A stretch of 64,000 nt of DNA from NCBI GenBank assembly GCA_023701245.1, contig JAMPXK010000005.1, positions 385 through 64,384 on the forward strand, given 5' to 3'. Under the pieces are notes generated by a model that searched no databases, was not told the DNA's origin, and saw only the letters and a program-made list of their open reading frames with translations. Origin of the DNA: Elusimicrobiales bacterium. GTDB lineage: Bacteria > Elusimicrobiota > Elusimicrobia > Elusimicrobiales > UBA9959. Both the position numbers and the translations under genes were made by a program. Below, one piece after another: positions 85 through 43,467 of this stretch (its first letter is position 1; each line of letters starts with the position of its first letter).

Positions 85-732
85 ATGACTAGCACTGAAA
101 TCTGGGAAGTTTCTAGGGCTGTAATACTTTCTCTGGGTGGTGCTGGATTGATTTTGTTCAGTCTATCGAGCTTACTATCAAAAATCTGGGCAGATAGAAT
201 TCTTTATAGAGAAAGACATGCCTTAGATAAAGAGCTTTCAAATCTTCAACAAAAGTCATCTGAATTAATGGCACGGCTTCAAGCCGTGATTGATAGAGCA
301 CAGCACGTTAGTCGTGTGACATTTGATCGCGAATTTGACACATATAAAGAAGCATGGGACAGAGTTGTGGACTTGCGGGCAGCCGTCTTATCGCTTCGTC
401 CAATTATGGATTATGTGGACCCAAAACAATCAGAGGATGACAGAAAAAGAGAGCGACTCAAGCGTTACTATGATAGTTTGGCACCATTTTGGAATTCGTA
501 TGAAAAGAATCGCCCATTCCTGCCGGAACAGATTTATCATGAGTTTTCGAATCTTGCAGATATAACACGAAAAGAAGAGGCGTATTATAGGTTTGATTCC
601 CCTAAAGAAGACGTCAGAAAGTATTGGGAAGATAGCCTGAAACATAGGGATGAGATCATCGGGAGCTGTGACAAAATCAGCAACCTAATACGTGCAAGAT
701 TGCTCGAACTTTCCTCAATCCAGCAGAAGTAA
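85..732 (+). CDS. hypothetical membrane-anchored protein (AT-rich, probably foreign)
   Basis: ORF 73..732; ATG at 85 preferred over GTG 73. One N-terminal hydrophobic helix (AVILSLGGAGLILFSLSSLL), then a charged helical domain. No family recognised. Clearly lower GC than the rest of the window. Confidence 0.55.
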   Translation: MTSTEIWEVSRAVILSLGGAGLILFSLSSLLSKIWADRILYRERHALDKELSNLQQKSSELMARLQAVIDRAQHVSRVTFDREFDTYKEAWDRVVDLRAAVLSLRPIMDYVDPKQSEDDRKRERLKRYYDSLAPFWNSYEKNRPFLPEQIYHEFSNLADITRKEEAYYRFDSPKEDVRKYWEDSLKHRDEIIGSCDKISNLIRARLLELSSIQQK

Positions 733-3792: not shown

Positions 3793-4200
3793 CGGGCTTC
3801 ACCTTACGCCATAGACGTGAAATCCCCCGTGGACCCGGTTGACTGGTTCCTGGCCGGCAAGGACGACGTGCGCTCGTCCTATTATCTGGAGGACGTGGCC
3901 ACGGAATTCCACGTGCAGGGCCTGGAGCTGGACTGGGCCTGCGTCACCTGGGACGCGGACATGCGGTTTACACCCGCGGGCTGGGAGAACTGGTCCTTCA
4001 AGGGCGACAAATGGCTGCGCATCCTCAAAGACGCGCGCAAAGACTACCAGAAGAACGCTTACCGCGTGTTACTCACCCGCGCCCGCCAAGGCATGGTACT
4101 GGTGGTGCCGGAGGGGGAGACCGCGGACCACACCCGGCTCCCGGGGTTCTATAACTCCACCTACGACTACCTGCGGGATATCGGCTTCCCTGTAATTTAA
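3793..4200 (+). pseudogene. orphan 3' fragment of a DUF2075 gene (repeat A2)
   Basis: The 127-aa ORF 3817..4200 is ~95% identical to the C-terminus of the 782..2767 product. It lacks the whole ATPase part. Confidence 0.85.
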
Positions 4201-4220: not shown

Positions 4221-4257
4221 AACCCGACAGACCGTTGTCGGGTTCACCTGCTATGCT
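4221..4257 (+). promoter_or_regulatory. palindrome + extended -10 module copy 2
   Basis: CCCGACA 4223-4229, TGTCGGG 4236-4242, TATGCT 4252-4257. Lies inside repeat A2. Confidence 0.7.
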
Positions 4258-4277
4258 ATTTGTGGGAAGGGGGACTT

Positions 4278-6901: not shown

Positions 6902-6941
6902 CCCGCCCGGGCGCCGCTCAATTCCAAAAAATCCTCTCCCG

Positions 6942-6977
6942 CCCCGACACTACGGTGTCGGGGTGGTCTGCTATGCT
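6942..6977 (+). promoter_or_regulatory. palindrome + extended -10 module copy 3
   Basis: CCCGACA 6943-6949, TGTCGGG 6956-6962, TATGCT 6972-6977. Confidence 0.7.
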
Positions 6978-6999
6978 ATTTGTGAGGAAGAAGGGGATT

Positions 7000-7605: not shown

Positions 7606-8595
7606 ATGAGCAATATAGATTTCCTTATTAAGCGCGGCGAGGCCTATTTCAGCGAGGGGCTGTTTGGGCCGGCTATCAACAATTACAGCCAGGCCATAGC
7701 GGCCGGGGACCGCAGTTCGCAGCTTTACTGCCTGCGGGCCAAGGCCTACCTGGCCAAAGCCTGGGAAGACGCGGGGCGCGCGCCTTTCGAGGAAGAGGCT
7801 TATGAAGTGTGGGCGGCGGATTTCGGCCGCAGGCCGGAGCTGGGTTTGGCCCTGGCGGACGCCGCGCAGGCGGTGCGCCTGGACCCAAAAAACAACGAGG
7901 CCTATTACGGTTTGGGCATGATACAGGTGGATAAAAGGTGCTGGGCCGAGGCTATAGCGGCTTTCGACAAATGCCTGGAGCTGCTGCCCGAAGATACGGA
8001 GGCCATGTACTGGCGGGCGGTGGCTTTTGACGAAATGGGCGATACCCCCAAGGCCCTTGAAACGCTGGGGGAGGTTATAGCTTTTGCGGCGGATTGTTCC
8101 GAGGCGTTCTACATGCGCAGCCAGATCCTTACTTCCAAGGGCGACCTGGAAGGGGCCCTGCAGGATATCTCCAAGGCCATAGACCTGGACCCCGAGGCGC
8201 CGGAGTATTATCTGCAGCGGGGCAAGGTGCTTTCCTACATGGCGGAAAAGCCGGCGGGGGCCGCGCGGCTGGCCGAAGCCATAGAGGACCTCTCGGAAGC
8301 TTTGCGCCTGGACCCCAAGTTTGCCGAGGCCTACAGCTGGCGCGCCCTGGCCTATATGCAGGCGGGGGAAGAAAAAAAAGAATTGAAGGACCTGGACGCG
8401 CTGATAGCGCTGGAGCCCAACCACGCCGAGGGCTACCGCCTGCGCTACGAATGCCAGGTGGCCTGCGGGCGGCGGCTGGAAGCGGCCATGGACTGGCTGT
8501 ACCTCTGTTTCTTAAAGCCCCGGGCGATAAGCGACACCCTGACCGAAGCCGGGCGGGGCGCGCGGGCGGATTTTAAAAAACTCAGCGGCAATTAG
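7606..8595 (+). CDS. tetratricopeptide repeat protein
   Basis: Repeated A..Y..RA.AY...G....A..D...A...DP motifs. ATG 7606 lies 7 nt after TATACT 7593-7598, so it is possibly leaderless. The ORF track begins at TTG 7588. Confidence 0.7.
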   Translation: MSNIDFLIKRGEAYFSEGLFGPAINNYSQAIAAGDRSSQLYCLRAKAYLAKAWEDAGRAPFEEEAYEVWAADFGRRPELGLALADAAQAVRLDPKNNEAYYGLGMIQVDKRCWAEAIAAFDKCLELLPEDTEAMYWRAVAFDEMGDTPKALETLGEVIAFAADCSEAFYMRSQILTSKGDLEGALQDISKAIDLDPEAPEYYLQRGKVLSYMAEKPAGAARLAEAIEDLSEALRLDPKFAEAYSWRALAYMQAGEEKKELKDLDALIALEPNHAEGYRLRYECQVACGRRLEAAMDWLYLCFLKPRAISDTLTEAGRGARADFKKLSGN

Positions 8596-17240: not shown

Positions 17241-17274
17241 AGGACCGGAGGAGATCCCTCCGGTCCTTTTTTTT
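17241..17274 (+). terminator. intrinsic terminator
   Basis: AGGACCGGAGG-agatc-CCTCCGGTCCT followed by T8. Confidence 0.85.
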
Positions 17275-17275
17275 A

Positions 17276-17310
17276 CCCGACACTACGCTGTCGGGGCGGC
17301 CTGCTATGCT
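17276..17310 (+). promoter_or_regulatory. palindrome + extended -10 module copy 4 (ssb)
   Basis: CCCGACA 17276-17282, TGTCGGG 17289-17295, TATGCT 17305-17310. Confidence 0.7.
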
Positions 17311-17342
17311 ATTGGGAGTAAAAATTACCGCAAGGGGGCAGT

Positions 17343-26648: not shown

Positions 26649-28007
26649 ATGACCATTAAGACCATTTTCCTGACCGCGCTGGCCCTGGCTTTCGCGCAGC
26701 CCGCGGCGGCCGCCAAGACCGACCGGCCCGCGGCCCCGGTTAAAACCTGCGAAGTGCGCAAGGTGGTGGTGGCGCCTTATTCGGGCGTGATCACGCCGGC
26801 CGCGGCGGAATTCATTTCCGGCGCGGTGGAAAAGGTCAACGCCCCGGGAGGCGCGGACCTGCTGGTGGTGGCGCTGGATACGCCCGGCGGGCTGGACTCG
26901 TCCATGCGGACGATAATAAAGGCCATGCTGGCTTCCAAAAAGCCGGTGGCGGTGTACGTGAGCCCGCAGGGCGCGCGCGCGGCTTCCGCCGGCGTGTTCA
27001 TCTCCATGGCGTCGCCGCTGGTGGCCATGGCGCCCGGCACCAACATAGGCGCCGCGCACCCGGTGATGATAGGCGGCGGCTCGCCCCTGGGCGGGCTGGG
27101 AGGCAAGGACGGGAAGAAGCCGGAGAAAGAACCCATGGAGGAGAAGGTCCTTAACGACGCTTCCGCCTACATGAAGTCCATAACCCAGAAGACGGGCCGC
27201 AACGTGGACTGGGCCATAAAATCCGTCACCAAGAGCGAATCCATTTCCGCCGAAGAGGCCGTGAAAGGCGGCGTAGCCGACTTCATAGCCGCGGACCTGA
27301 CGGAGTTCCTGGCCAAGGCCGACGGCTTCAAGGCCGGCGACTTCGGCGTGCTGCGCACGGGGGGCGCGGAGGTGGAGTACTTCCGCCAGACCAGCCGCCA
27401 GAAATTCCTGGCCACCATTACGGACCCCAACATAGCCATGATCCTGATGAGCCTGGGCGCGGCGGGCATGTTCATAGAGCTTTACAATCCCGGCCTGATC
27501 CTGCCCGGCGTGGTGGGCGCGGTGTCGTTGGTGCTGGCGTTCTATTCCTTCCAGACGCTGTCGGCCAATTTCGCCGGCGTGGCGCTGATCCTGCTGGGCT
27601 TCGTGTTCTTTATCGCCGAGATAAAGGTGATAAGCTACGGCCTGCTGACGCTGGGCGGCGCGGTGGCCATCATGCTGGGCGCGCTCATGCTGTTCAATAC
27701 CCCTTCCATAGGAGGACTTTCGGTGTCGATGCATATGATACTTACCACGATAATCGGTTTGGTGGCGGTGGTGGCGGGGCTGGCCTGGTTCGTGGCCCGC
27801 GCGCAGCTGCGCAAAGTGGTGACGGGCATAGAAAGCCTCAAGGACAAGCGCGGCCTGGCCAAGACGGCGCTGAGCCCCCGGGGCACGGTGCTGGTGGAGG
27901 GGGAACTCTGGGAGGCGGAAAGCGTCTCCGGCGACATCCCCGCCGGCGCCGAGGTGGACGTGACCGCGGTGGAAGGCTTCAGGGTGCGCGTGCGCCAGGC
28001 CAAATGA
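26649..28007 (+). CDS. NfeD-family membrane-bound ClpP-class serine protease
   Basis: Signal peptide, ClpP-like core (ALDTPGG...ARAASAGVFI), multi-TM middle, C-terminal NfeD OB-like domain. Confidence 0.85.
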   Translation: MTIKTIFLTALALAFAQPAAAAKTDRPAAPVKTCEVRKVVVAPYSGVITPAAAEFISGAVEKVNAPGGADLLVVALDTPGGLDSSMRTIIKAMLASKKPVAVYVSPQGARAASAGVFISMASPLVAMAPGTNIGAAHPVMIGGGSPLGGLGGKDGKKPEKEPMEEKVLNDASAYMKSITQKTGRNVDWAIKSVTKSESISAEEAVKGGVADFIAADLTEFLAKADGFKAGDFGVLRTGGAEVEYFRQTSRQKFLATITDPNIAMILMSLGAAGMFIELYNPGLILPGVVGAVSLVLAFYSFQTLSANFAGVALILLGFVFFIAEIKVISYGLLTLGGAVAIMLGALMLFNTPSIGGLSVSMHMILTTIIGLVAVVAGLAWFVARAQLRKVVTGIESLKDKRGLAKTALSPRGTVLVEGELWEAESVSGDIPAGAEVDVTAVEGFRVRVRQAK

Positions 28008-28210
28008 CGGACCGGCTGGCTGCCAACTGGCAGGCCGAGATCATAGCCGACTGCGCCCACCGGCTTGGGCGCAAGCTGACGCCCAAAGAAGAGAATTTCA
28101 TCCGTTCCTGCGGGGGCCTCCTGGCCCTGGAATCCGTGCACGACATGGTAAAAAGCCTCACCGGCCCCGCCCTGGAAAAATACCTCAATTCCCCGGTCTC
28201 TTCTGACTGA
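28004..28210 (+). CDS. hypothetical small protein (68 aa)
   Basis: ATGA start/stop overlap with the nfeD-like gene. No family recognised. Confidence 0.45.
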   Translation: MTDRLAANWQAEIIADCAHRLGRKLTPKEENFIRSCGGLLALESVHDMVKSLTGPALEKYLNSPVSSD

Positions 28211-28232: not shown

Positions 28233-28366
28233 CCAGACAGGCGGAGTATGGGTTTGGCGGGCCCTCACGGACTGAAGCCGCTTGCGCAGCGCGGCGAGGG
28301 AGTGAGGAGGGGCGGCCACGGTGTGGCCGACCCCGTGCCCGACTAACCCATACTCCGCCTGTCTGG
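28233..28366 (+). repeat. structured intergenic repeat, copy A (candidate ncRNA or REP-like element)
   Basis: 22-bp perfect closing stem (28233-28254 / 28345-28366), inner 5-bp helix CGGGC/GCCCG, and a 40-nt core (28302-28341) identical to 38131-38170. Confidence 0.6.
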
Positions 28367-28427: not shown

Positions 28428-28456
28428 TTGAAATACAACCCCCGCTATGTCATAAT
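28428..28456 (+). promoter_or_regulatory. sigma70-type promoter TTGAAA-N17-(TGt)CATAAT
   Basis: Read directly, 80 nt upstream of the clpC ATG. Confidence 0.6.
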
Positions 28457-28535
28457 ATATGTTCGGCGAGAAGCGCTTTCGCCGCCGTTTTTGTCTGTCT
28501 TTGAACGATTTGCGGCATACTACGGAGGAACTTAC

Positions 28536-38011: not shown

Positions 38012-38045
38012 GGTTGCGATCTTGTCGTTGTCTGCCGAAGGACGG

Positions 38046-38188
38046 CGCGGGGTAAGGGTTCGGCGGGCCTTCGCGGAGACCTGAGCTTGCGTAAGCGCGA
38101 AGGTCGGGTGGAGCGAAGCGACACCGCAGTGTGAGGAGGGGCGGCCACGGTGTGGCCGACCCCGTGCCCGCCGGGCCCTTACCCCGTG
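38046..38188 (+). repeat. structured intergenic repeat, copy B
   Basis: 23-bp closing stem (38046-38068 / 38166-38188) with three G-T pairs that are wobble-compatible only on the plus strand. The core 38131-38170 is identical to copy A. Confidence 0.6.
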
Positions 38189-38194
38189 ACGTCC

Positions 38195-39223
38195 TTATTG
38201 GACCGGGGCCGCCGCGGGCGTGGTTACTGTCATGGTGCTGGCGGCGGGGGCCGCGGGCGGTTCTGGCTTGGGCGGATGGGCTATGTACCACACGTAGTTG
38301 GCCAGGTCCTTGTGGTCCTTGTTCATCTTTTCCGGGCAGGCGCCGTCTTCGGTATAGAAAGAGGCCTGGCGCACGCCCTTCACGCGCGCTTTCACCGACG
38401 CCGGGATAGCCGCGTTGTAGATCACGTGGCCGTTGCCCGCCACCACCAGCACGCTCCAGCCGGGGTTGGCGTTGAGGAACTCGGCCACCTTGTTGCCCAT
38501 GCCCTCGTTCCAGGCCGCCATGGACGCCAGGTAATTCTCCAGCGTGAACATCTTGGCCATGGGGGAAGACCCGTGCCCGTCAAAAGTGGCCTTCAGATAG
38601 TCGTTGTACTTCTTATGCTGCGTTATCTCCACCTTCTCCGGCAGGAAAGCCTTTTCTTCCGGCGTGAGGCTGTCCAGGCCGGTGCGCGCTATCTTGCCCA
38701 CCACCTTCTTGGGCACGTTCAGCGCCAGGCCCTTGAGCTTGTGCTCGGCGATAAAATCGAACAGCGGCTTGTACATGCCGAAATCGAAACCCCATTCCTT
38801 CTTCCAGTCTATCTTTTCCAGGAATTCTTCCTGGGTGATGGTCCCGGCGGCGTACGCGTCCAGCACGGGCTGCAGGGTCTGGTTGAGCATCTCGAACCCG
38901 ACGGCTATTTTGGAGCCGCGCGCTATCTTCATGGCCTTGAGCGCCTCGAACTGGGCCTCGTGGTCCAGCGGCTGGTCGTGCGTTTCGCCCACGTACACCA
39001 CGTCGCTCTTCCACACCACGGCCTTGAAGGCCGCCTCGGTGTTGAACGCTTTGCCGCTCTGCGCCCCGAAAATGCAGAAGCGCGGGTCCGGCTTGGCCGC
39101 GGCGGCGGCCGCTTCGGCCGAAACTTCGCGCTTGTCGGTGCTGGCATTGGGCTTCTTGACGTACTTGGCGTAGACCGCGAGCGGCAGGGCGAGGATAATA
39201 AGGAAGAAAAGGATGGTTCTCAT
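38195..39223 (-). CDS. ChaN-family (haem-binding uptake/Tiki-like) lipoprotein
   Basis: VVYVGETHDQPLDHEAQFEALKAM...VGFEM is the ChaN/PF04187-like core. TATAAT lies 6 nt upstream of the ATG. Confidence 0.75.
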   Translation of the reverse strand: MRTILFFLIILALPLAVYAKYVKKPNASTDKREVSAEAAAAAAKPDPRFCIFGAQSGKAFNTEAAFKAVVWKSDVVYVGETHDQPLDHEAQFEALKAMKIARGSKIAVGFEMLNQTLQPVLDAYAAGTITQEEFLEKIDWKKEWGFDFGMYKPLFDFIAEHKLKGLALNVPKKVVGKIARTGLDSLTPEEKAFLPEKVEITQHKKYNDYLKATFDGHGSSPMAKMFTLENYLASMAAWNEGMGNKVAEFLNANPGWSVLVVAGNGHVIYNAAIPASVKARVKGVRQASFYTEDGACPEKMNKDHKDLANYVWYIAHPPKPEPPAAPAASTMTVTTPAAAPVQ

Positions 39224-40405: not shown

Positions 40406-40473
40406 CAAGGGAGTTGCGGTGAGGCTGTTTTTGGGCGCGGCGCAGAAATGTTAACATAATATATGCCCCGCAA

Positions 40474-40508
40474 CCCGACACAACGGTGTCGGGATGAGTT
40501 GGTAGACT
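40474..40508 (+). promoter_or_regulatory. palindrome + extended -10 module copy 5 (recA proximal)
   Basis: CCCGACA 40474-40480, TGTCGGG 40487-40493, TGgTAGACT 40500-40508. Confidence 0.7.
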
Positions 40509-40543
40509 ATTTGTGTAAGAAAATTTAACGGAGGTTACAAAAC

Positions 40544-41649
<1,106 letters not shown>

Positions 41650-41650
<1 letters not shown>

Positions 41651-42657: not shown

Positions 42658-43467
42658 ATGGGTAAGAAGGCTAATTCCGCGGTATTCATATTTTCACTGG
42701 CGGCCTGCTGCGCGCTGCCGGCTTCGGCGCAAACGGCGGTTTCCAGCCTGCTGGGCGGCGACGCCCCGGCATCGCTGCCTCTCCCGCCGCTGCCGGGAAA
42801 GCCCTCCCTGCTGCCTTTTGTCCCGGCTTACCCGCCGCTTCCCTGCCAGTCGCCCGCGGTGTACATAAACGACAGCGGCTATATTTTCAGCGACGGGGAG
42901 CGCCTGGGTTACGACGCCGCGGACTATAAGACCGGCTGCACCCCCGACGTGGCCTGGGTCAGCAAGTCCGGGTATATCTATAAGAACGACGACCGCCTGG
43001 GTTACGACGCCCGGGATTACCAGCTGGCCGCCTACACGGGGGACGTGGCCTGGGTAAGCAAGTCCGACTACATCTACAAGAATGACAACCGCCTCGGGTA
43101 CTACGCGAAAGAATATAAAGTGGCGCCTTACACCGGCGATGTGGCCTGGCTCAACAAGTCCGGCGAGATCTACAGGAACGACGACCGCATCGGGTACGAC
43201 GCTAGTGAATACCAACTGGCCGACCATACGGGCGACGTGGTCTGGCTCAACAAGTCCGGGGAGATCTACAGGAACAACAACCGCATCGGGTACCACGCGA
43301 AAGAATACAAGGTGGCGGCTTACACCGGCGACGTGGCCTGGCTGGACAACTCGGGGTCGCTCTATAAGAACGGCCAGAGAGTCGCCAGTTCCGTTAAGAA
43401 ATATTCCATAGACGCTTACGGCAAATTGGCCTGGATCGACTCCTTCGGCAACCAGCATATAGACTGA
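42658..43467 (+). CDS. secreted protein with six tandem 31-residue repeats
   Basis: Signal peptide, a proline-rich linker, then a 93-nt period from 42874 with consensus SG.IY.NDDR.GY.A.EY..A.YTGDVAW..K. Confidence 0.75.
   Translation: MGKKANSAVFIFSLAACCALPASAQTAVSSLLGGDAPASLPLPPLPGKPSLLPFVPAYPPLPCQSPAVYINDSGYIFSDGERLGYDAADYKTGCTPDVAWVSKSGYIYKNDDRLGYDARDYQLAAYTGDVAWVSKSDYIYKNDNRLGYYAKEYKVAPYTGDVAWLNKSGEIYRNDDRIGYDASEYQLADHTGDVVWLNKSGEIYRNNNRIGYHAKEYKVAAYTGDVAWLDNSGSLYKNGQRVASSVKKYSIDAYGKLAWIDSFGNQHID

Follow-up and report, generated by a model that had tools for sequence, protein, structure and literature searches.

A clade-specific family of branched, structured intergenic repeats in Elusimicrobia

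Background

To our knowledge, dispersed palindromic repeats such as the repetitive extragenic palindromic (REP) and enterobacterial repetitive intergenic consensus (ERIC) sequences are known mainly from proteobacteria and a few Gram-positives, where they form simple hairpins. In this work we describe an element that occurs twice, as copy A (positions 28233..28366, + strand) and copy B (38038..38196, + strand), in 64,000 nucleotides of DNA from an Elusimicrobiales bacterium (NCBI GenBank assembly GCA_023701245.1, contig JAMPXK010000005.1, positions 385 to 64,384 of the forward strand); this whole stretch is hereafter called the window. Both copies belong to a clade-specific and previously undescribed family of structured, non-coding intergenic repeats. 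With this family an uncultured phylum carries a far more elaborate version of such repeats, characterized by a branched fold, conserved hairpin tips and repeat-like genomic behaviour.

The closest described systems share some properties with this element and lack others. Like the REP sequences, the bacterial interspersed mosaic elements (BIMEs) built from them and the REPINs, the element is abundant, non-coding, extragenic and palindromic, a single strand of it folds, and neither an open reading frame (ORF) nor a target-site duplication (TSD) belongs to it. However, REPs are simple hairpins of ~20-40 nt, many with a 5' GTAG, and are mobilised by RAYT, a Y1 transposase of the HUH type, whereas our element is 117-141 nt long, contains a three- or four-way junction with two sequence-conserved tips, and shows no GTAG conserved at its border. 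ERIC, also named IRU, is a 127-nt imperfect palindrome and thus of nearly equal size; it is intergenic, occurs in both orientations and has insertion variants at a fixed internal site, as our element does. Conservation of ERIC between species can exceed that of the flanking DNA, longer insertion variants occur, and some orthologous copies of our element are likewise conserved above their flanks. In contrast, ERIC forms one long hairpin and has no branched core with conserved loops, and our element belongs to another phylum, Elusimicrobia, with stronger turnover and mosaicism. Neither REP nor ERIC resembles it in sequence, as no match was obtained when copy A was compared with 5,426 E. coli genomes by blastn (word size 11).

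Two further groups are of interest for comparison. The Correia/NEMIS, RUP and BOX elements are also small, non-autonomous and dispersed, and co-transcription can turn them into mRNA hairpins; they have conserved terminal inverted repeats (TIRs) and TSDs (TA for Correia), whereas our family varies most at its termini and shows no TSD. The inverted terminal repeats (ITRs) of parvoviruses, including adeno-associated virus (AAV), and the single-strand origins of rolling-circle plasmids are T-shaped, strand-specific folds of ~130-150 nt in single-stranded DNA with two short arms on a long stem, sequence-specific tips and a function tied to one strand, and they are read by HUH proteins or RNA polymerase. 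Our element resembles them in its T-shape and strand asymmetry, a likeness in possible working and not in descent. However, those structures lie at replicon ends or origins, one or two in each, while the element is chromosomal, is present in tens of copies, has no Rep gene near it and finds no match in phage, viral and plasmid collections.

By sequence and by defining features the family is not a member of REP, ERIC or similar families; its fold is of another kind, branched and with two sequence-specific tips. With moderate confidence, we place it as a structured repeat family in the wider REP/BIME-ERIC class, larger and branched, whose fold would be recognised in trans, most readily as single-stranded DNA. 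The placement in this class is based on its distribution, the lack of expression signals, inverted doublets, assembly breaks and turnover.

Family size and distribution

The first scan compared the core pattern GGGGCGGCCACNNNGTGGCCGNCCCC with one genome per species and returned 84 stretches. The element is carried by 73 of these, from 15 metagenome-assembled genomes (MAGs) labelled Elusimicrobia, Elusimicrobiales, Elusimicrobiaceae or unclassified 'SKS1' bins. All 73 genome copies have the GGT loop, the bulged A (replaced by C in locus L010 only) and the flanking sequence GAGTGAKGA...GYG. The remaining 11 stretches were rejected as unrelated palindromes from Streptomyces, Dehalococcoidia and other taxa, whose loops differ and whose flanks are dissimilar. 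For the second scan, metagenome contigs were searched with a pattern that fixed the two hairpin tips but not the stem of the P3 arm; it returned at least 120 contigs. A covariance model built from 42 copies identified ~95 real copies among the genome loci; in the metagenome loci it detected 128 in the first 100 and 26 in the other 20. Altogether ~250 copies were recovered from the 15 Elusimicrobia MAGs and at least 120 metagenome contigs, and the dispersed multi-copy repeat that a sequence-only reading had proposed for the window thus extends well beyond the pair of A and B.

On the level of genomes, single fragmented MAGs contain at least 11-14 exact-core loci, and the window alone holds two copies in 64 kb. 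The high copy number and extragenic position are again shared with REPs and REPINs. Many of the loci are located at contig ends, which is typical of assembly-breaking repeats, and the family accounts for breaks of Elusimicrobia MAGs at element sites.

Outside this clade, the exact core was absent from the viral contigs searched, and blastn against plasmids and phages gave no match; a phage or plasmid origin was rejected on these grounds. Rfam 15 returned no match for the whole window at gathering thresholds, and for both copies at E up to 10 it returned only chance matches far below threshold, none of them to a ribozyme or riboswitch model. ARAGORN found no tRNA or tmRNA. The element was initially not recognised as tmRNA, the signal recognition particle RNA, RNase P, 6S RNA or a known riboswitch, and these searches agree. 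Literature searches on Elusimicrobia repeats or RNA motifs returned nothing relevant.

Consensus architecture

Read from 5' to 3', the element consists of an outer stem, the helix P1 and a three-way junction with the arms P2 and P3. The whole hairpin is 117-141 nt long (median 132) or ~160 nt with an extra hairpin, and the covariance model comprises 127 positions. The outer stem has ~20-35 bp with a G-rich 5' arm and a C-rich 3' arm; its arms are the least conserved part, and within one genome they vary from copy to copy around a nearly identical core. P1 has two forms, CGGGC/GCCCG-like ('G-type', including A and B) or CAAAAC/GUUUUG-like ('A-type'). The P2 arm contains P2a (CCUCAC/GUGAGG), an internal loop GGA/GA and the 9-bp P2b, often with tandem G.A, and ends in the tip CUUGC-RUA(A)-GCG, of which CUUGC..AGCG is invariant in the family alignments. 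A single A joins this arm to P3, which consists of 4 bp, a bulged A on the 3' side and 7 bp closing a GGU loop (tip CAC-GGU-GUG). P3 is followed by the junction bases G and Y and then by the 3' strands. The two hairpin tips, the one bulged A and the GGA/GA internal loop are conserved in sequence.

A minority of copies, including B, have a hairpin of variable sequence at one fixed site, between the 3' strands of P2b and P2a, which converts the junction into a four-way one. Hairpins of differing sequence at this site were found in loci L007, L008, L033, L043, L044, L046, L050, L058, L066, L074 and L075. A subset of G-type copies starts with GGAG and ends with the tail CCCC-GACUNNGCAUCUCGCGG. In the sole filled-versus-empty comparison (L021 versus L064) this tail is part of the insert; a pairing of GACUNNGCAUCUCGCGG with the 5' flank was considered and was inconsistent on inspection. 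In A-type copies (for example in L003, L014, L024 and L064) the sense strand reads GUGUUUUG after P3, and the antisense strand has GUUUUG directly after the P2 complement.

A three-way association was also observed within the core, between columns 28, 72 and 102 of family alignment A2 (positions 28265, 28306 and 28336 in copy A). Copies with C as the junction base after P3 have U.U as the P2a pair (24 of 25), and those with U at this base have C-G, G-C or U.G (84 of 85). The association could be a tertiary contact or a gene-conversion haplotype.

Covariation and strand asymmetry

Covariation was calculated from two alignments. In the plain MAFFT seed, which is independent of the model, pairing holds in 88.3% of cells, and 25 pairs show changes in both partners; the alignment scores 0.307 for covariation as compared with 0.122 in shuffled alignments (0 of 500 reach 0.307) and 0.056-0.124 when the partners are slid by 1-3 columns. 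The 128 metagenome copies, in an alignment fitted to the model but with the P3 stem unfixed by the search, are 91.5% paired and show double changes in 42 of 46 pairs, with a score of 0.452 against 0.128 for shuffled and at most 0.081 for slid partners. By helix, all 13 pairs of the outer stem (helix 1) change on both sides, all five pairs of P1 covary, and so do P2a and P2b. In P3, 9 of 11 pairs change on both sides among copies gathered without fixing this stem, while CAC-GGU-GUG and the bulged A are constant. Its stem occurs in 52 sequence variants, which include GGGG/CCCC, GGCG/CGCC, GGUG/CACC and GCGG/CCGC as well as CGGCC/GGCCG, CGCGC/GCGCG, CGGGC/GCCCG and more. Between two species, the orthologous copies L013 and L031 have three differences, and three of three are compensated.

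The fold is real and evolutionarily maintained, with strong covariation in all five helices. The structure-preserving variation that had been noticed between A and B therefore holds for the whole family, including P3, which appeared invariant as long as only these two copies were compared. The covariation is among the strongest obtainable for a bacterial non-coding element, although covariation alone is no proof of an RNA gene.

The two strands of the element are not equivalent. When the arms were aligned with each other as DNA, without any folding model, mismatches of the G.A/A.G kind outnumbered C.T/T.C (178 versus 51), and G.T/T.G outnumbered A.C/C.A (100 versus 66). Thus G.U and tandem G.A stand in for pairs on the sense strand, where the opposite strand would have A.C and C.U. 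The sense strand is also the more stable one in 163 of 172 copies with RNA parameters (averages of -92.8 versus -83.6 kcal/mol) and in 162 of 172 with DNA parameters. This asymmetry of mismatches and stability indicates that constraint acts on a single-stranded form of the + (sense) strand, which may be RNA or DNA.

Such a pattern brings in the alternative of a functional structured RNA family, in which each element would have its own undetected promoter or be excised from longer RNAs at the outer stem (for example by RNase III), and would serve as a ribonucleoprotein component, a protein sponge, a trans-antisense partner of mRNAs with the opposite orientation or a self-cleaving ribozyme. The family resembles the non-coding RNA motifs of the Breaker/Weinberg type in Rfam in its multi-helix covarying consensus, conserved loops and optional variable stem. 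Five covarying helices with an optional variable hairpin at a fixed site, conserved loops and bulge, G.U and tandem G.A on one strand only, and compensated differences between orthologous copies all speak for an RNA, and the U.U at P2a that accompanies a junction C may reflect a tertiary contact. The P2 tip frequently reads C-GUAA-G and is hence GNRA-like; however, several copies (GCAUAAGC, GCAUAGC) have A as the first base of this loop. The Rfam ribozyme and riboswitch models also remained without a match even at E = 10. The signals for expression, which also bear on this alternative, are considered below with the genomic placement.

Copies A and B in the window

Copy A (inverted repeat I12) is a G-type copy with a three-way junction, and all of its parts are given on the + strand. 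As read from the sequence, the 5' arm of its outer stem, CCAGACAGGCGGAGTATGGGTT (28233..28254), forms 22 perfect pairs with the 3' arm (28345..28366), its perfect reverse complement. A 3x3 interruption (28255-28257 / 28342-28344) lies between the outer stem and P1, whose 5' strand CGGGC (28258..28262) has its partner GCCCG at 28337-28341, according to both sequence and fold. The P2 arm (28263..28307) was delimited from the fold and from family alignments A2 and A4. It includes P2a (CCUCAC at 28263-28268 pairing with GUGAGG at 28302-28307) and P2b (28272-28281 with 28291-28299), which are separated by the internal loop GGA/GA, and the tip UUGCGCAGC (28282-28290). The P3 hairpin, GGGG-CGGCCAC-GGU-GUGGCCG-A-CCCC, occupies 28309..28334 with a 3-nt loop and the bulged A at 28330. 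The fold has -101.1 kcal/mol (z -8.0), and 0 of 200 shuffles fold as well. The covariance model matches 28237-28363 (+) with 119.4 bits and E 2.4e-30.

Copy B (inverted repeat I17) is a longer G-type variant, in which the extra hairpin makes a four-way junction. Its inverted repeat of 31 nt is 87% complementary (38038-38068 / 38166-38196). The + strand folds with -118.1 kcal/mol (z -8.5, 0 of 200 shuffles as good) and the - strand with -100.2, a difference that arises because several of the pairs are G.U. The model match spans 38043-38192 (+) with 81.2 bits and E 1.6e-19. The optional hairpin, GGGUGGAGCGAAGCGACACCGCAGU (38106..38130, +), is placed between the 3' strands of P2b and P2a by the alignment of A with B and adds ~23 bases, while the P3 hairpin (38138..38163, +) is identical to that of copy A.

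The two copies have in common an exact 40-nt block on the + strand, GTGAGGAGGGGCGGCCACGGTGTGGCCGACCCCGTGCCCG (28302-28341 and 38131-38170), which comprises the 3' strand of P2a, the joining A, P3, GU and the 3' strand of P1; it occurs exactly twice in the window and is absent from all 100 of 100 shuffles. The covariance model detected only copies A and B in the window.

Most details of the sequence-only reading were reproduced. The perfect 22-bp outer stem of copy A, its 3x3 loop, its CGGGC/GCCCG helix and both its GCCGC/GCGGC and its P3 hairpins are present in the sequence; the 40-nt block is identical in A and B; and alignment of the two copies confirmed both the compensatory change from GTATGGG/CCCATAC in A to GTAAGGG/CCCTTAC in B and the insertion of an extra hairpin in B. 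The extent given for copy A needs a small qualification, as the fold is as described but pairing reaches slightly further, with the family model covering the span noted above.

Copy A starts 23 nt past the stop codon (28210) of a 68-aa ORF (28004-28210, +), which itself overlaps the stop codon of an NfeD-like gene (ATGA overlap). The copy is sense to both of these and lies upstream of the clpC promoter-like site 28428-28456. Copy B is located between a ChaN-like gene (-, stop 38195) and a gene of the major facilitator superfamily (-, start 38011), is antisense to both, and has its 5' end 26 nt from the start codon of the opposite-strand gene. The window conforms in this to the placement seen across the family.

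Borders, placement and orientation

Conservation stops ~8-10 nt outside the model, and the flanks contain no conserved promoter or terminator. Sigma-70-like sites upstream on the sense strand were not enriched (14 of 170 versus 11-18 at three control positions). In the 8 nt after the stem, 0 of 172 copies have five or more T, with a mean of 1.06 T, and no terminator-like site was called at A or B. No ORF was found within the copies. The element was rejected as a Rho-independent terminator, since a U-tract after the hairpin is lacking in 172 copies, and it does not look like an independent small RNA gene, given no conserved flank positions beyond ~10 nt, no promoter enrichment and no consistent orientation. 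The copies do not fit an integron attC site either, because the borders are without R''/R' boxes (RYYYAAC / GTTRRRY) and the copies are dispersed in both orientations.

Copies lie between ORFs, at median distances of 33-94 nt from the neighbouring genes. About a quarter of them occur in pairs and most, including A and B, are solo. Orientation was counted with a home-made ORF caller scored by codon usage, according to which 50 solo copies are antisense to both flanking genes and 26 are sense to both, while 27 lie between convergent genes and 5 between divergent genes. A median of 33-45 nt separates the 3' end of the element from the stop codon of that gene to which the element is antisense. The non-redundant close pairs (gap 9-153 nt) comprise 25 head-to-head, one tail-to-tail and one tandem arrangement and are mostly found between convergent genes, so arranged that incoming transcripts meet the antisense copy first. 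The bias of solo copies and the head-to-head pairs can be expressed as one rule, by which the copy nearest to a gene 3' end is usually antisense to that gene. The suggestion that each pair combines one A-type with one G-type copy was rejected, as the observed counts (AG 11, AA 5, GG 4) correspond to random mixing. These orientation rules are new observations that any mechanism has to meet.

In several of these respects the family again behaves like REPs and BIMEs, which are found at gene ends and rarely in divergent promoter regions, and whose hairpin is kept by compensatory change. The close pairs, with their 25:1 excess of the head-to-head form, recall the inverted doublets with short linkers of BIMEs, although most copies are solo. 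One published account describes REPs within BIMEs as alternating in orientation (PMC2817692).

The same results weigh on the RNA alternative. No promoter is conserved or enriched upstream and no terminator follows downstream; the orientation is 2:1 against read-through transcription and 25:1 antisense-first in close pairs; and copy B, with an opposite-strand start codon 26 nt from its 5' end, leaves no room for a promoter. Unlike Rfam motifs of the Breaker/Weinberg type, the family is absent from Rfam 15, and neither its gene neighbours nor its orientation are consistent, nor does a promoter or terminator regularly accompany it. RNA genes do not usually occur in tens of copies per genome, break assemblies or turn over as mosaics. 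An RNA family is thus rather unlikely, but it keeps a real share of our credence because G.U, tandem G.A, the optional stem and the possible tertiary association are RNA-like. The element had been proposed to be either a structured RNA or a REP-like hairpin. The second part of this proposal fits better, whereas a discrete ~140-nt RNA is disfavoured by borders without promoter or terminator and by a strand that is more often antisense to the neighbouring mRNA (50 versus 26 solo copies).

Turnover and mosaicism at orthologous sites

The occupancy of orthologous sites is variable. At one gene 3' end, L148 has a + copy (7977-8103), L049 has a - copy with an unrelated stem (1917-2043), and L122 (~7729-7791) has a plain intrinsic terminator, AGAGGCGCGGCC...GGCCGCGCCTCTTTAATTT, and no repeat. 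L064 carries a single copy at a site that holds a pair in L021. Upstream of clpC, the window has a + copy, L136 a - copy and L152 a pair, although the gene itself shows 84% identity. Copy A is therefore upstream of clpC by position, as first described, but its link to clpC is incidental, since the corresponding region of relatives has the other orientation or a pair.

Two classes of orthologous copies can be distinguished. Those of the first are 92-100% identical, several of them more alike than their flanks, whereas those of the second are only 72-80% identical despite flanks with 76-99% identity. Between L065 and L066, L057 and L060, and L001 and L075, the outer stem is common but the core subtype differs, the extra hairpin being present or absent. 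Such mosaics suggest that copies recombine, which would help to explain how uniform cores coexist with locus-specific outer stems.

Several simple routes to the observed arrangements were considered and rejected. An in-place inversion of the core between its arms does not apply to L148 and L049, whose outer stems are unrelated. Insertion into the loops of pre-existing intrinsic terminators disagrees with the missing T-tracts after the stems and with the L021-versus-L064 insert, which brings its own stem. An origin of the outer stem by inverted duplication of target DNA was dismissed because the stem sequence is absent from the empty site of the same comparison. An AT-rich look-alike of a TSD at L021/L064 did not generalise.

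These comparisons bear on the possibility of a classical miniature inverted-repeat transposable element (MITE), that is, a deletion derivative of a DNA transposon whose transposase would bind double-stranded TIRs, here the arms of the outer stem. A MITE would likewise be small (117-141 nt), non-coding, dispersed and intergenic with terminal inverted repeats of 20-35 bp, and the filled and empty sites of L021 and L064 have AT-rich similar sequence at both sides of the insert. However, the termini are the least conserved part and differ within one genome, while the interior is nearly identical. Among 15 copies with defined ends, the best match between flanks averaged 5.4 as compared with 5.3 for mismatched flanks, which gives no signal of a TSD. 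No parent element or transposase was found between or beside copies in the sampled DNA, and strand-specific G.U and G.A and the covariation of internal hairpins would have no role in the recognition of double-stranded TIRs. We consider a MITE highly improbable, in accordance with the initial remark that the element is the opposite of one: the outer inverted repeat is least conserved and no TSD was seen.

Nor do the data favour a host device at gene ends, by which the element would act as a terminator, an attenuator, an mRNA 3' stabiliser or a processing site. Its closeness to stop codons (median 33-49 nt), the avoidance of divergent promoter regions, the very stable folding of both strands and the plain intrinsic terminator that takes its place at the orthologous site of L122 would suit such a role, as would the GUUUUG that directly follows the strong hairpin of A-type copies in either reading direction. 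Judged from its letters, an A-type copy with a strong hairpin and a short U-run in each direction is a possible weak bidirectional terminator, though this does not extend to G-type copies such as A and B. In contrast, none of 172 copies has a T-tract after the stem, either orientation can occupy one orthologous site, and a simple barrier or terminator needs no branched core, invariant loops or preferred strand. A host device therefore appears very unlikely.

Search for a mobilising gene

For the RAYT search we ran tblastn with E. coli RayT (from NC_000913.3) over ~1.6 Mb of loci. One gene with a Y1_Tnp domain (IS200/RAYT-like) was found, at 102-530 (-) of L197, with 142 aa and a match to Pfam PF01797 at E 2.5e-12. 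It lies 2.6 kb from a copy, which is roughly the chance expectation. This single unlinked gene gives no sign of a RAYT association in the sampled DNA, where no RAYT flanked by copies, as known for REPs and REPINs, was found. As a separate observation, the Y1_Tnp gene is preceded by three small unrelated hairpins, and the metagenome contig that encodes it carries the element.

Two further candidates were rejected. As regards a composite transposon, the genes between distant inverted copies in the sampled DNA were, by eye, phosphatase-like (low-molecular-weight, CX5R motif), radical-SAM-like and other non-transposase ORFs. As regards a recurrent neighbour, the largest cluster of adjacent genes has a putative Cys-rich ferredoxin-like N-terminus, and none of the families in the sampled DNA looked like a transposase.

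Interpretation

In the reading that we prefer, a repeat family of the REP/BIME-ERIC class, the element is probably mobilised in trans. Its T-shaped single-strand fold, and above all the P3 hairpin, would be the structure by which a trans-acting protein recognises the element and copies or moves it. Gene conversion between copies would keep the cores alike, and the locus-specific outer stems would drift with their pairing kept. The form under selection would be single-stranded DNA rather than free RNA, with a HUH/RAYT-like or comparable enzyme acting on the folded strand; we lean to DNA because the strand with the conserved fold lacks its own promoter and is, in most cases, opposite to the mRNA. 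When co-transcribed with its neighbours, in either orientation, the element would form a hairpin of approximately -84 (antisense) to -93 (sense) kcal/mol. Within an mRNA this hairpin could be a barrier to 3' exonucleases or a substrate of RNase III, as with REP, ERIC and Correia sequences, but this would be a side effect and not the reason for the core.

Several points weigh against this interpretation. The three-way junction, conserved tips, tandem G.A and many G.U are more typical of functional RNAs than of REPs, and the hairpins that HUH enzymes are known to read are short and simple. The compensated differences between L013 and L031 suggest selection in place, which a purely selfish element would not need. 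The copies are phylogenetically related, so the orientation counts are not independent, and the gene calls behind them are home-made. No mobilising gene was found in the sampled DNA, where the gene families beside copies are housekeeping ones, and the one Y1_Tnp gene in ~1.6 Mb is low in GC, 2.6 kb away and not flanked by copies. Finally, no clean filled-versus-empty site with exact borders was obtained among the comparisons made, so that mobility is inferred from distribution and turnover.

A small probability is assigned to a new class of strand-specific T-shaped module, either a dispersed chromosomal analogue of viral or plasmid single-stranded DNA origins and ITRs read by a HUH-type or other structure-specific enzyme, or a new multi-copy structured RNA. 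The DNA version, if true, would represent a new way for bacterial repeats to move, by means of a branched recognition fold. The RNA version would represent a self-processing or protein-sequestering module released from many mRNAs; its sense copies could pair with the ~75-nt identical antisense cores in dozens of 3' untranslated regions and so form a genome-wide regulatory network. The P3 hairpin (CAC-GGU-GUG with the bulged A) provides a testable object for finding the protein that reads it.

Other features of the window

A different palindrome, ACCCGACA-N6-TGTCGGGT followed by GGCCTGCTATGCTATT, is present in five copies on the + strand (2786-2837, 4221-4272, 6941-6992, 17274-17325 and 40472-40523), the last of which ends ~20 nt before the ATG of ORF 40544-41650. 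The same palindrome occurs in another Elusimicrobia MAG, in the 5' flanks of L001 and L075. From its sequence, the palindrome with GGCCTGCTATGCTATT looks like an operator or a hairpin plus promoter.

The promoter-like site of clpC at 28428-28456 reads TTGAAA-17-CATAAT with TG. In the clpC leader, a terminator-like hairpin, CGGCGAGAAGCGCTTTCGCCG plus CCGTTTTTGT (to 28494), precedes the ribosome-binding site at 28524 and may be a leader attenuator. The region 42876-43418 is a tandem repeat with a 96-nt period and at least four units of 60-80% identity, probably coding for a repeat protein. Two 300-nt segments, at 2369-2668 and 3802-4101 (1433 nt apart), are duplicates with 95% identity; each of these segments is followed by the palindrome-plus-promoter motif, and they probably represent recently duplicated paralogous genes.

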